Origin: Actinomycetota bacterium
GTDB lineage: Bacteria; Actinomycetota; Acidimicrobiia; Acidimicrobiales; CADCTF01
Assembly: GCA_019348255.1 (NCBI GenBank)
Contig: JAHWJU010000003.1
Span: forward strand, 1-63,514
Direction of reading: 5' to 3'
DNA: 63,514 nucleotides
The first letter of the stretch is position 1. Each line of letters begins with the position of its first letter. Positions 54,981-63,514 of the stretch are shown here, piece by piece. Under the pieces are notes generated by a model. The model saw only the letters and a list, made by a program, of their open reading frames with translations. It did no database searches and had not been told where the DNA came from. The position numbers were made by a program, and so were the translations under genes.

Positions 54981-56315
54981 TCAGCCCCGGGGAGGAGACG
55001 GCGTGGCTGCCCGCACCACAAGCACGGCCACGTCGTCGAGCGTGCTGCCGGCCTGGTGGTCGATCACCGCCAGCTCGAGCCGACGGGCGATCCCGTCGGC
55101 GGTGCGGCCCGCGCAGCCGACGAGCAGCGACTCGAGCCGCTCCTGACCGAACTCCAGGCCGTCGGGAGCCCGAGCTTCGATGACGCCGTCGGTGTAGAGC
55201 ACGATGGCGTCTCCGGGCGAGAGCGTCAGGACCTGGTCCGAGATGCAGGCGTCCGGGAAGAGCCCGAGCGGCATCCCACCCGACACCCCGGCGGACTCCA
55301 CGTGGCCGTCCTCACGCAGCACCAGCGGAGGCGGGTGCCCGGCATTCGCCAGGGTGACGGCCACGCCGAGGGCAGTCGGGACCAACCGCAGGAACACAGC
55401 AGTGCAGAACCGGTCTCCGGTTCGCTGGTTGTTGAGGGCGTCGTTGAGCGACCTCAGCACCGCGCTCGGACCACCGTCGCCGGCCACGGCCCGCACCGTG
55501 TAGCGGGCGATACCCGTCAGGGCCGCCGCCTCCGCCCCCACCCCGCTGACGTCTCCCAGCACCACCCCCCATTCCCCATGACCGGTGCTGAAGACGTCGT
55601 AGAAGTCGCCTCCAACCAGGTTCCCCGATCCGGTGGGGCGGTAACGGGCGGCGCAGTCCACCCCCCGGATGACCGGCAACAGCGGTGGCAACAGCGTCTC
55701 CTGGAGCACGCGCGCCACCTCGGCCCTCTCGGCCAACACGTCGGCCTTTTCGAGGGCGACCGCCAAGTGGGCGCTGATGCCGAGGAGGAGTTGCTCGTCG
55801 CGCCGGTCGAAGGCCCGCTGCTGGTGGTGGCCGAGGAAGAGGGCGCCCAGCACCTCTCCGGAGCGGATGACCACGGGAGCGGCCATGTAGCTGCGCACCG
55901 GGCCCCGCTCCCGGAAGGAGCCATAGGGGCGAGCCGCCTCTTCGCTCAGCGCCCACAGGAGCGTGTCGTCGACCCGCAGCGGGGCCCTGCTGGAGAAGGC
56001 GGCCGCCAGGAGCGGGGCCCGGACCGGCGCTGGTGGGTGTTGGAAGTCCCTCTCCGCTGCCCCGACGAGGACCTGCAGGTCCGCCTCCTGAGCCCCCACG
56101 TACATCGCGAAGTCGGCTCCGGTTAGCTCCCGGGCCGCCTCGGCCAACCCCTCCACGAGCCGCTCCACCTCCAGCTCGCCCAGGATCTCCGGCAGCCGCA
56201 GGAGCACCGTCTCCAACCTCGACCGCTCGGCTTCGAGCTGCTTCAACAGCGCCTCCGTCGGGGTGTCGAGCCGCCAGTCCGATGCCCTTCGTCCTCCGAC
56301 GCGCTCGCCGCTCAC
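54981..56315 (-). CDS. GAF-domain PP2C (SpoIIE/RsbU-type) serine phosphatase
   Basis: ORF 54981..56615 trimmed to GTG 56315, which overlaps the upstream stop as GTGA. Coiled-coil region, GAF domain (GALFLGHHQQRAFD) and PP2C motifs GGDFYDVF, LGDVSGVGAEAA and VLYTDGVIEA. Confidence 0.85.
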   Translation of the reverse strand: MSGERVGGRRASDWRLDTPTEALLKQLEAERSRLETVLLRLPEILGELEVERLVEGLAEAARELTGADFAMYVGAQEADLQVLVGAAERDFQHPPAPVRAPLLAAAFSSRAPLRVDDTLLWALSEEAARPYGSFRERGPVRSYMAAPVVIRSGEVLGALFLGHHQQRAFDRRDEQLLLGISAHLAVALEKADVLAERAEVARVLQETLLPPLLPVIRGVDCAARYRPTGSGNLVGGDFYDVFSTGHGEWGVVLGDVSGVGAEAAALTGIARYTVRAVAGDGGPSAVLRSLNDALNNQRTGDRFCTAVFLRLVPTALGVAVTLANAGHPPPLVLREDGHVESAGVSGGMPLGLFPDACISDQVLTLSPGDAIVLYTDGVIEARAPDGLEFGQERLESLLVGCAGRTADGIARRLELAVIDHQAGSTLDDVAVLVVRAATPSPPRG

Positions 56316-57085
56316 GCCGTCTGCCCCGCCGGACGGTCCACCTCGAACCACACGCTCTTGCCCGACAACAGGGTGTCGATGCCCCAGCCCGTCGACAGCG
56401 AGTCGATGAGGGCCATCCCGCGGCCCGACTGGGCCTCGTCGGCGGCGTTGCGCCGGTGGATGACGGCGTCGGCGGAGTCGATGACCTCCACGCGAACCTT
56501 CGCCGGCCGCAGGTGGATGGCCAGCTCCACCTCGGAGTGCGCGTGCACGACGGCGTTGGTGACCAGCTCGCTCACCAGCAGAGTCGCCGTGTCGAGCAGC
56601 TCGTGGCAGTCCCACCGATCAAGGGTGTCGTGGACGAAGCGGCGCGCCGCCCCCGCGCTGCGCAGATCGGGTGCGAAGCGCCGGCGCTCGGTCGCCACCA
56701 CCTCGTCGACGTCGCTCAGAAGGCGGGCCAGCTCGACCAGCTCGTCGGCCATCCGGCTGGCCGGCACGCTCTTGGAGAGGTAGCCGATGCTCGAGGCCAG
56801 CGGCGAGCGGTTCCACAACTGGTGCTCTGGATAGGCCGACACGGCCACGATGGCCGCCGCCGGCGCCGCCTGCCGTAGCGGCGCGACCGCGGCCAGGCCG
56901 TCCATGCCCGGCATGACCATGTCCAGCAGCACGATGTCCGGTTGAAGCTCGGCCGCAGTCGTGATCCCGCGGGCCGCATCACAGGCCTCGCCCACCACCT
57001 CGAGGTCGCTCGCTCCGTCCAGGGCGTAACGCACGAGCAACCGGTAGTCGGGATTGTCGTCTACCACCAGCACCCGGTAGGACAC
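56312..57085 (-). CDS. receiver domain fused to an RsbW/SpoIIAB-like anti-sigma serine kinase domain
   Basis: REC domain: VLVVDDNPDY and IVLLDMVMPGMDG. HATPase_c_2-like domain: RRFVHDTLDRW, ELVTNAVVHA and GRGMALI. GTG start at 57085. Confidence 0.8.
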   Translation of the reverse strand: MSYRVLVVDDNPDYRLLVRYALDGASDLEVVGEACDAARGITTAAELQPDIVLLDMVMPGMDGLAAVAPLRQAAPAAAIVAVSAYPEHQLWNRSPLASSIGYLSKSVPASRMADELVELARLLSDVDEVVATERRRFAPDLRSAGAARRFVHDTLDRWDCHELLDTATLLVSELVTNAVVHAHSEVELAIHLRPAKVRVEVIDSADAVIHRRNAADEAQSGRGMALIDSLSTGWGIDTLLSGKSVWFEVDRPAGQTA

Positions 57086-62700: not shown

Positions 62701-63514
62701 GTGTCCTTGAGCTCCCCCACCTCGCCGGCCGCCTCGACGGTGATGTTCCGGGTGAGATCGCCCTGGGTGACGGCCTGGGAGACCTCGGCGATGGCCCGAA
62801 CCTGGGTGGTGAGATTGCTGGCCAGTTGGTTCACGCTCTCGGTCAGACGCTTCCAGGTGCCCGATACGCCTTCGACCTCGGCCTGACCGCCCAGCTGGCC
62901 CTCGCTGCCCACCTCCCGGGCCACCCGCGTCACCTCACCGGCGAAGGAGCCGAGCTGGTCGACCATCGTGTTGATGGTGTTCTTGAGCTGGAGGATCTCG
63001 CCCCGGGCGTCGACGGTGATCTTCTGGGAGAGGTCACCCTTGGCCACCGCGGTGGTCACCTGGGCGATGTTGCGCACCTGGTCGGTGAGGTTGTCCGCCA
63101 TCGAGTTGACGGAGTCGGTGAGGTCCTTCCATGTGCCCGACACCCCCCTCACCTCGGCCTGGCCCCCCAGGTTCCCCTCCGTGCCCACCTCCCGGGCGAC
63201 CCGGGTGACCTCGTCGGCGAAGGAGCGCAGCTGGTCGACCATGGTGTTGATGGTGTTCTTGAGCTCGAGCAGCTCGCCCCGCACCTCGACCGTGATCTTC
63301 TGGGAAAGGTCACCCTTGGCCACCGCGGTGGTGACCTGGGCGATGTTGCGCACCTGGCCGGTGAGGTTGCCGGCCAGCTGGTTCACGTTGTCGGTGAGGT
63401 CCTTCCAGGTCCCCGAGACCCCCCGTACCTGGGCCTGGCCCCCGAGCTTTCCTTCGTTACCCACCTCCCGGGCCACCCGGGTGACCTCGTCGGCGAAGGA
63501 GCCCAGCTGGTCGA
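59766..63514 (-). CDS. hybrid sensor histidine kinase: poly-HAMP array, GAF, Q/E-rich coiled coil, HisKA, HATPase_c and three receiver-like domains; 5' end lies outside the window
   Basis: The frame stays open to the window edge ([18 protein letters not shown] precedes the ORF-track start). H-box [15 protein letters not shown] motifs [15 protein letters not shown] and [19 protein letters not shown]. Confidence 0.9.
62667..63514 (-). repeat. 276-bp (92-aa) tandem coding repeats forming a poly-HAMP array, at least 3 copies in the window
   Basis: The unit [63 protein letters not shown]...[12 protein letters not shown] recurs. The first two copies are also very similar at DNA level. Confidence 0.8.

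Follow-up and report, generated by a model that had tools for sequence, protein, structure and literature searches.

What kind of signaling system is encoded by an operon in which a CheR/CheB methylation pair stands between two histidine kinases and is followed by an RsbW-like protein and a protein phosphatase 2C (PP2C)? The question is raised by six minus-strand genes that run from position 54981 to the end of a 63,514-nucleotide (nt) stretch of Actinomycetota bacterium DNA (Acidimicrobiia, Acidimicrobiales; NCBI GenBank assembly GCA_019348255.1, contig JAHWJU010000003.1, forward-strand positions 1 to 63,514), hereafter called the window. A preliminary description, made from the sequence without database searches, had put these genes forward as an undescribed kind of system. 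Our results point elsewhere: the operon is a new combination of known parts, familiar from RsbK/RsbM, cfcABCDE, Lvr, and OsaA/OsaC, rather than an undescribed kind of system. What is not described in the literature that we found is the union, in one operon, of a methylation writer and eraser, a receiver (REC) on an RsbW-like protein, and a GAF-PP2C protein. On balance, we lean toward reading the whole as a methylation-adapted kinase cascade that would run through a REC-histidine kinase (REC-HK) to a REC-RsbW-like output. The six genes are as follows.

59766..63514 and beyond, minus strand: gene 1, hybrid kinase; 3' part of 1248 codons, with the frame open to the window edge
58912..59769, minus strand: gene 2, CheR; GTG start overlapping the kinase stop (GTGA); CheR_N and CheR domains (Pfam)
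58287..58907, minus strand: gene 3, CheB; CheB_methylest only, 206 amino acids (aa), no REC (Pfam)
57088..58290, minus strand: gene 4, REC-HK; 400 aa; ATG overlapping the CheB stop (ATGA); Response_reg, HisKA, and HATPase_c domains
56312..57085, minus strand: gene 5, REC/RsbW-like protein; 257 aa; Response_reg (1.8e-18) and HATPase_c_2 (1.8e-11) domains (Pfam)
54981..56315, minus strand: gene 6, GAF-PP2C protein; 444 aa; GTG overlapping the gene 5 stop (GTGA); GAF_2 (1.8e-14) and SpoIIE (1.3e-46) domains

The order, domains, and coordinates given for these genes in the preliminary description were all recovered from the open reading frames (ORFs), Pfam, and independent gene calls on a second contig of the same species (locus L085; NCBI GCA_019348055.1), which is 99.6% identical over 10.3 kb and carries all six genes. 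Direct reading of the sequence likewise returned the junctions described before, namely, from gene 1 to gene 6, a GTGA overlap, 4 nt, an ATGA overlap, 2 nt, and a GTGA overlap. From this spacing alone, we infer that the six genes are co-transcribed and co-translated. The listed RNA runs contained 0% of the locus words, the runs that did contain the locus being DNA soil metagenomes, and consensus scans for promoters and terminators returned none on the minus strand and fewer sites than shuffled sequences, a result that is uninformative in an actinobacterial genome at 70% GC (the window as a whole is at about 70%). The gene calls on L085 placed the starts of genes 3 to 6 exactly as in the window, whereas the CheR start was called 21 codons later, giving a 264-aa form (P0001) versus 285 aa in the window. 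The GTG start of the long form is supported by orthologues that align over 100% of its length at 92% identity and by overlapping starts in the related loci L002, L004, and L089. No catalytic motif has been lost from CheR, CheB, either kinase, or the PP2C. The co-occurrence of His-Asp, Glu-methylation, and Ser/Thr (PP2C/RsbW-type) components, which had been proposed from the letters of the sequence, is real according to both Pfam and motif content.

Gene 1 encodes, in order, a poly-HAMP array, a GAF domain, a signaling helix (S-helix), HisKA, HATPase_c, and three Response_reg domains (Pfam), located as follows.

62658..63512, minus strand: poly-HAMP array; the last approximately three 92-aa units lie inside the window; HAMP and HAMP_2 matches
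62178..62594, minus strand: GAF domain; GAF_2 6e-20, residues 307-445
61809..62144, minus strand: coiled-coil signaling helix between the GAF domain and the phospho-acceptor His; Glu/Gln-rich heptads, one stretch at 61956-61997
61125..61838, minus strand: HisKA and HATPase_c core; H-box HELRTP, G1 DTGIG, G2 GTGLG
59811..60941, minus strand: three receivers; REC1 60633-60941, REC2 60252-60575, REC3 59811-60131

The kinase is indeed cut by the window edge, as had been noted, and on L085 the gene can be followed for at least 1918 aa, which include about ten double-HAMP units of 92 aa. Its full length is about 1,965 aa here (some 45 N-terminal residues beyond L085) and 2,119-2,226 aa in full-length orthologues, which carry 12-13 'GDL[ST]' units and no N-terminal hydrophobic or membrane segment; the predicted product is hence a soluble kinase of about 2,000 aa. 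The truncation is probably an assembly break caused by the repeats of the HAMP array, whose 276-nt units are 77-86% identical to one another at the DNA level. Both the window and L085 (positions 1-2900 of the latter) end inside this array, and the kinase gene of L001 is split into three ORFs. The three domains that had been described as receiver-like are genuine receivers, with the Asp, T/S, and Lys positions kept in nearly all of the 62 aligned sequences (61 orthologues and the window kinase). Identity of the kinase declines from 81% to L002, through 62% to a Gemmatimonadaceae kinase and 46% to Pseudomonas putida CfcA, to 37% to an RsbK-type kinase.

What, then, would the methylation enzymes modify? 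The gene 2 product has intact S-adenosylmethionine motifs and is predicted to be a CheR-type protein-glutamate methyltransferase of the RsbM/CfcB clade; it matches solved structures of chemotaxis CheR far less well (at most 115 bits). The gene 3 product retains the Ser/His/Asp motifs of CheB (GCSWGG, QH, and DG; CheB_methylest 5e-56), and every related locus has a REC-less CheB, 193-198 aa long. We propose the S-helix of gene 1 as the predicted CheR/CheB substrate. Specifically, when the 140 residues before the phospho-His were taken from 70 kinases and a His-anchored consensus was built from the 66 that belong to genome loci, the heptads were found in register and at a fixed distance from the His in all 66 orthologous kinases, which span more than 10 phyla and include the RsbK type. 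The consensus contains '..eElQ.QqeEL...neELe.q..eL..s.e.Lq.QQEELqq.nEELee....LeEQ....E.KN.ElE.A...LEeKA.qL..', and the window helix conforms to it, with 14 [EQ][EQ] pairs compared with a family mean of 13.5. Together with the precedent of RsbM and RsbK discussed below, these features make it quite probable that the kinase itself serves as the substrate. The CheR/CheB pair is, in any case, explicable without any che cluster.

Two further observations concern CheB. A perfect 27-nt tandem duplication (2.1 copies; window 58292-58348), at its 3' end near the gene 4 start, repeats nine residues (SHPQGERSS SHPQGERSS); L085 has one copy of the repeat, a 27-nt difference in alignment length, and a CheB of 197 aa instead of 206 aa, so that the length varies in frame immediately ahead of the ATGA junction. 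Further, in locus L063 (Sericytochromatia), the gene directly after CheR (8982-11426) encodes CheB_methylest-REC-PAS-PAS-HisKA-HATPase_c in a single 815-aa ORF, a natural fusion and hence a functional link between REC-less CheB and kinases of the gene 4 type.

The association of this CheR clade with sensor kinases extends far beyond the Acidimicrobiia. The preliminary description had proposed a survey of the neighborhoods of CheR/CheB next to poly-HAMP kinases, and a profile scan with the window CheR, one genome per species, yielded 80 loci with 45-71% CheR identity, distributed among Gemmatimonadota, Acidobacteriota, Cyanobacteria, Bacillota, Myxococcota, Bacteroidota, Pseudomonadota, Deinococcota, Chloroflexota, Planctomycetota, Verrucomicrobiota, and Desulfobacterota. 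We mapped the flanking domains with seeds from the window proteins. Among the 72 loci with enough flank, 67 have a GAF-HK-REC kinase immediately before CheR, and three receivers are present in 61 of the 74 kinases counted; REC-less CheB follows CheR in 58/78 and is missing mainly in Bacillota, REC-HK is present in 49/69, and a poly-HAMP sensor occurs in 11. The window-protein seed for the RsbW-like gene found none in the 80 loci, and PP2C genes were confined to the Bacillota loci and one Chloroflexota locus. Elsewhere, the proteins after the core are REC-GGDEF, REC-PAS-GGDEF-EAL, REC-PAS-PilZ, bare REC, or REC-PP2C (Pfam), with REC-GGDEF(-EAL) genes in L045, L071, and L074; in these three and L043, loci from Alloalcanivorax and of the Desulfobacterota type, the slot held in the window by REC-HK/REC-RsbW is filled by REC-PAS-PilZ, REC-GGDEF, or REC-PAS-GGDEF-EAL. 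In other lineages, the same methylatable kinase core hence seems to drive cyclic di-GMP (c-di-GMP) outputs. Given its presence in more than 10 phyla beside such varied output genes, the core is old and widespread and the output exchangeable.

At the output end of the window operon, gene 4 has the layout REC, helix, HisKA, HATPase_c, with the receiver Asp in ILLDVQMP, the H-box HDLREP, and the N, G1, and G2 boxes present. Its NCBIfam 'EpsF' match (277 bits, cut-off 900) was dropped, the proteins named EpsF in the literature being unrelated glycosyltransferases. Gene 5 encodes a response regulator with a C-terminal RsbW/SpoIIAB-like (Bergerat) domain. An AlphaFold2 model built from 42 homologues (mean predicted local distance difference test score 87.8) has as its best fold match in the PDB the Leptospira protein LvrC (9qih; E 1.3e-12), over both domains, and its C-terminal domain matches SpoIIAB (1l0o/1tid; E approximately 2e-7, template modeling score 0.68-0.71 on the target). 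The REC plus HATPase_c_2 architecture recurs in at least 120 database clusters, and the N-box residues E173/N177, D203, and the G2 glycines G221/G223 are invariant in the family. Gene 6, with the metal-binding motifs GGDFYD, GDVSGVG, YTDGV, and DDVAVL, is predicted to encode a GAF-PP2C (SpoIIE-type) Ser/Thr phosphatase.

Is the six-gene arrangement an accident of one contig? Lack of synteny in any relative had been named beforehand as an outcome that would speak against the operon, and the relatives show the opposite. Soil and other metagenomes supplied the closest CheR homologues (70-92% identity), which, where labeled, are assigned to Acidimicrobiales or Actinomycetota. The six-gene order is the same in L085 and L087, and likewise in L086 as far as the contig reaches (it ends in the gene following gene 5), with gene 5 of L086/L087 only 50% identical to that of the window. 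Five of the six genes (poly-HAMP kinase, CheR, CheB, REC-HK, and REC-HATPase_c_2) follow the window order in L001-L004 and L089, and in L001, L002, and L089, the PP2C lies directly upstream of the kinase, either as GAF-SpoIIE plus HATPase_c_2 or, in L002 and L089, as a fused PAS-GAF-SpoIIE-HATPase_c_2; the contigs of L003 and L004 are cut at the kinase, and their upstream side is not visible. Gene 5 stands directly after gene 4 in 8/8 related loci, while L088 has an orphan gene 5 homologue away from any kinase-CheR core. Because the same order recurs in these relatives, the cluster is conserved within its lineage; in this sampling, the six-gene combination was seen only in Acidimicrobiia-like metagenome contigs. 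In five relatives (L001-L004 and L089), only a few bases separate the operon from the end of a convergent mscL gene, and genes for a major facilitator superfamily transporter, dodecin, and hemerythrin are close by in several of these.

How does the operon relate to systems that have been studied experimentally? The nearest functional precedent for the kinase-CheR pair is that of Bacillus cereus, where the CheR-type enzyme RsbM methylates the signaling helix of the kinase RsbK and keeps sigmaB off (PMC4574943), and RsbK acts via RsbY (REC-PP2C) on RsbV/RsbW/sigmaB (PMC4574943, PMC12848376). RsbM is an orphan without a paired esterase, and S-helix methylation by a CheR-type enzyme is known to have been demonstrated only in B. 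cereus (PMC4574943). The Bacillaceae locus L033 has the published RsbV/W/sigB/RsbY/RsbK/RsbM arrangement, with STAS, HATPase_c_2, a sigma factor with regions 2, 3, and 4, and REC-SpoIIE, followed by CHASE3-HAMP-GAF-HisKA-HATPase-REC and CheR. The window shares with RsbK/RsbM a hybrid kinase with GAF, S-helix, HisKA, HATPase, and REC and a CheR-type methyltransferase gene directly downstream, at 55% identity for CheR and 37% over 757 aa for the kinase, measured against the L033 pair rather than B. cereus RsbM itself. It also shares with the B. cereus pathway an output through PP2C/RsbW-type proteins and the combination of His-Asp, Glu-methylation, and Ser/Thr-switching chemistries. The statement in the preliminary description that no characterized pathway has this composition therefore falls, since a pathway homologous to the window CheR and kinase already joins all three (PMC4574943, PMC12848376). 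Nevertheless, the window operon does not belong to the B. cereus RsbKMY-sigmaB pathway in the strict sense. RsbK is a membrane protein with CHASE3, one HAMP, and one receiver, whereas the window kinase is predicted to be soluble, with a poly-HAMP array and three receivers; the orphan RsbM contrasts with the dedicated REC-less CheB; RsbY has its receiver on the phosphatase, whereas in the window it is on the RsbW-like protein and the PP2C carries GAF; and the window has an additional REC-HK and no linked STAS or sigmaB gene. In other clade members, the ORF layout in L068 and L036 gave no sign of sigB genes beside REC-PP2C, and none of three upstream ORFs scanned in L013 was STAS, RsbW, or sigma.

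In gene order, the closest system is cfcABCDE of P. putida, whose order is found in the Pseudomonas loci L039, L046, L048, L065, L067, and L070. There, the CHASE3/GAF hybrid kinase CfcA is needed to activate the diguanylate cyclase CfcR, the CheR/CheB pair CfcB/CfcC has no role in chemotaxis, and cfcB, cfcC, cfcD, and cfcE mutants have no crinkly phenotype (PMC4951495). Like cfcABCDE, the window has a hybrid kinase, CheR, CheB, REC-HK, and a receiver protein in that order, and both kinases carry GAF, S-helix, and three receivers; identity to P. putida-type Cfc proteins is 46% for the kinase, 50% for CheR, 44% for CheB, and 34% over 387 aa for REC-HK. The differences are that CfcA has CHASE3 in place of poly-HAMP, that the fifth gene product CfcE is a bare receiver in place of REC-RsbW, and that the cfc cluster has no PP2C gene. 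Its known output is the unlinked cyclase CfcR, and no REC-GGDEF-EAL regulator of the CfcR type was found among the window ORFs scanned.

For the second half of the operon, the closest functional parallel is the Leptospira Lvr relay, in which, as worked out biochemically, LvrA phosphorylates the LvrB receiver, and LvrB, once autophosphorylated, hands the phosphoryl group on to LvrC (PMC13269768). LvrC, which was crystallized with ADP-Mg, joins a receiver to an anti-sigma domain of the Bergerat fold (PMC13269768). Genes 1, 4, and 5 have the corresponding hybrid HK, REC-HK, and REC-anti-sigma architectures, and gene 4 has the layout of LvrB (REC, helix, DHp, CA), as it has that of CheS3 of R. centenum, a REC-HK that is the second kinase of a Che-like cascade (PMC3868531). 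Unlike the window, the Lvr system has its lvrC unlinked to lvrAB, and no CheR/CheB, poly-HAMP, or PP2C is mentioned for it in the available part of the report (PMC13269768).

Within the Actinomycetota, more than 10 HAMP domains are also present in Streptomyces coelicolor OsaA, a soluble hybrid kinase of 1,829 aa. Its neighbor OsaC, with RsbW-like, PAS/GAF, and PP2C parts, is a SigB-binding protein that resets the osmotic response (PMC9739842, PMC10117811). Like the osa locus, the window pairs a soluble hybrid kinase of this many HAMP domains with adjacent RsbW-like/PP2C genes, a likeness of architecture rather than of compared sequence, and the OsaC type of fusion reappears upstream of the kinase in L002 and L089, whereas in the window its parts are split over genes 5 and 6, with a receiver on the RsbW-like part. 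CheR/CheB and REC-HK are not reported at the osa locus, and the window operon has no OsaB-type (REC, coiled coil) gene. The REC-RsbW architecture of gene 5 is also that of TciR of Vogesella indigofera, a genetically studied regulator whose architecture its authors called previously uncharacterized and which is paired with a single ordinary kinase (PMC12826045), while Vibrio fischeri SypE and Pseudomonas HsbR unite REC, RsbW-like, and PP2C parts on one chain with a known STAS substrate (PMC12826045; bioRxiv 10.1101/2024.11.25.625174). None of these three is linked to CheR/CheB. Finally, the operon differs from the canonical Che pathway in the absence of CheA/CheW/MCP (methyl-accepting chemotaxis protein) from the window and related loci and in a CheB without an N-terminal receiver.

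Drawing on these parallels, we propose the following model. The soluble poly-HAMP rod and GAF domain would, judging by the architecture, set the autokinase activity of the HisKA/HATPase core. CheR would methylate Glu residues in the S-helix heptads and CheB would demethylate them, as homology to RsbM/RsbK suggests, thereby placing gain control or adaptation on the kinase itself, without MCP, CheA, or CheW. By analogy with LvrA/LvrB and CheA3/CheS3, the phosphoryl group from gene 1 would pass to its own receivers and to the receiver of gene 4, activating the latter; the odds that gene 4 acts as such a cascade intermediate appear to us about even. The gene 4 product would then phosphorylate the gene 5 receiver, as LvrB does LvrC, and so gate the binding, and perhaps the phosphorylation, of a partner by the RsbW-like domain, the partner being an unlinked sigma factor and/or STAS protein. 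Gene 6, coupled to gene 5, may act as the opposing phosphatase or as a second, ligand-controlled input on the same partner. Sigma-factor control is, in our assessment, the somewhat more probable output, and the physiological role is likely a stress response, possibly an osmotic one; the latter is hinted at by the osmoadaptation that OsaA/OsaC exert via SigB and, more weakly, by the convergent mscL in five relatives.

Several observations weigh against this model. No HPt domain is present in the operon, and the RsbK receiver is inhibitory rather than a relay element (PMC4574943). LvrB is absent from the gene 4 PDB matches at E values below 1e-10, the NCBIfam LvrA scores are 197 and 160 bits against a cut-off of 1200, and LvrC is absent among the best 60 of 155 PDB sequence matches for gene 5 (E up to 0.01). 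Given this lack of sequence orthology, the likeness to Lvr is one of working alike and not of membership. Orthology of the gene 5 receiver to the lone receiver CfcE was rejected in the same way, with no BLAST match at 1e-5. The classical MCP methylation consensus, [ASTG][ASTG]xx[EQ][EQ]xx[ASTG][ASTG], is absent from the S-helix, so that the site motif, if any, would be family-specific; the idea that the kinase is a disguised MCP was rejected on this ground. In gene 5, the G1 glycines are mostly replaced across the family and the ATP lid lacks about 11 aa relative to Bacillus-type RsbW, which makes kinase activity doubtful; binding by this domain is predicted with more certainty than phosphorylation.

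The partner is also missing from the neighborhood. The preliminary description had stated that the window contains no CheA, CheW, MCP, STAS antagonist, or sigma factor, and for the first four this stands: those families had no match among the 57 window ORFs with coding-type GC content at third codon positions (Pfam), nor in the annotated related loci. A sigma factor, however, does exist in the window, of the extracytoplasmic function (ECF) type (Sigma70_r2 and r4_2; 42202-42741, plus strand), about 12 kb from the operon; the nearest sigma is thus an ECF type, and neither the window nor the related loci yielded a group-3 sigma factor. A single-sequence phmmer search with Neobacillus STAS, RsbW, and SigB against all window ORFs gave zero matches, missing even gene 5 and the ECF sigma, and is therefore too insensitive to show absence. 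The mscL neighbor of the relatives is absent from the window as well.

The final steps of the cascade might run differently. SpoIIE-family PP2Cs usually act on phospho-STAS proteins, and the preliminary description saw genes 5 and 6 as a partner switch, in which gene 5 would be an active RsbW-type serine kinase and gene 6 the opposing phosphatase, with a shared unlinked STAS protein controlling an anti-sigma/sigma pair and gene 4 as a side branch or phosphate sink. This alternative, which departs from our model in the last steps only, draws on the translational coupling of genes 5 and 6, on the fusion of kinase-like and PP2C parts in L002 and L089 and likewise in SypE, HsbR, and OsaC (PMC12826045, bioRxiv 10.1101/2024.11.25.625174, PMC10117811), on the invariant N-box Asn/Glu, D203, and G2 glycines of gene 5, and on the ADP-Mg in the LvrC crystals (PMC13269768). 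Yet no STAS gene was found in the window or in any related locus, the G1 loop and ATP lid of gene 5 are eroded, and the kinase-like domain of OsaC binds SigB directly (PMC10117811), and we consider this version possible but rather doubtful. That genes 5 and 6 have no part in the pathway at all, and are an unrelated partner-switching pair fed by some other, unlinked kinase beside a methylatable-kinase core of genes 1-4, appears improbable to us. They are, it is true, not found with the core in the 80 genome loci outside this lineage, a gene 5 homologue stands alone in L088, and the position of the PP2C varies between relatives. Against mere adjacency speak the 2-nt gap between genes 4 and 5 and the GTGA overlap of genes 5 and 6, the constant place of gene 5 behind gene 4 in all eight related loci, down to 50% identity, the PP2C gene that accompanies the core in L085, L087, L001, L002, and L089, and the other receiver-output proteins that occupy the same position in other lineages, as would befit a cognate output slot.

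The most remote alternative concerns the other end of the operon: CheR and CheB could be ordinary adaptation enzymes for MCPs and a CheA/CheW array encoded elsewhere, with their proximity to the kinase a matter of co-regulation. Although both enzymes keep all of the catalytic motifs of their chemotaxis counterparts, their CheR clade is tied across phyla to the GAF-HK-REC kinase and only weakly matches the chemotaxis structures, CheB lacks the receiver through which CheA controls CheB, the P. putida orthologues have no chemotaxis role (PMC4951495), the Bacillus orthologue methylates the kinase (PMC4574943), and MCP, CheA, and CheW occur in none of the related loci. We therefore regard a chemotaxis role as very improbable and retain the methylation-adapted cascade to the REC-RsbW-like protein as the best account of the operon.

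A minus-strand ORF at 53381-54898 (about 505 aa), 82 nt downstream of the PP2C gene, has no Pfam match; its C-terminal tail is rich in Pro, Ala, and Thr, and it contains the motif 'HTDHIHFSF'. The L085 gene calls include this ORF, while other relatives carry mscL or an amine-oxidase-like gene after the operon instead, and it might be co-transcribed with the six genes. Housekeeping functions occupy positions 194-52000, including GlgE, glucan phosphorylase, an F-type ATP synthase operon, serine hydroxymethyltransferase, release factor 1, and Rho, with further Pfam matches to homoserine dehydrogenase, methylmalonyl-CoA mutase, glpX-type fructose-bisphosphatase, and Cu/Zn superoxide dismutase. A lone CheY-like receiver (approximately 41593-41970, minus strand) and a tRNA-Arg(CCG) (42045-42119, plus strand) adjoin the ECF sigma gene. 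GC content is 0.67-0.68 over CheR, CheB, and the kinase (58000-62000) compared with 0.70-0.74 over most of the window, with 20-28 kb equally low, and there is no sign of a mobile element around the operon.

We can only tentatively entertain the strongest version of our proposal, namely, that this is the first system in which a writer/eraser pair gives chemotaxis-like adaptation to a soluble poly-HAMP kinase that drives a two-kinase relay to a receiver-controlled anti-sigma protein. If it were true, a stress response governed by a sigma factor, perhaps one to changes in osmolarity or turgor, would adapt to sustained stimuli rather than being simply on or off, and the gene 4 receiver would control the REC-less CheB in trans, as the CheB-REC-HK fusion in L063 hints.

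The operon reveals no new signaling chemistry. Rather, it belongs to a conserved core, comprising a GAF/S-helix hybrid kinase, CheR, usually CheB, and usually REC-HK, that is present in more than 10 phyla and is wired to interchangeable outputs, be they c-di-GMP enzymes, PilZ, PP2C, a bare receiver, or, as here, an RsbW-like anti-sigma protein. Methylation of a kinase by a CheR-type enzyme is known to have been demonstrated in only one organism, B. cereus, which has no eraser. In the Acidimicrobiia version, every tier is gathered in one operon whose genes appear translationally coupled, and this single-operon layout offers a handy test case for whether kinase methylation is true adaptation, for how a REC-less CheB is controlled, and for whether receiver-controlled anti-sigma proteins of the LvrC/TciR type work with a PP2C partner.

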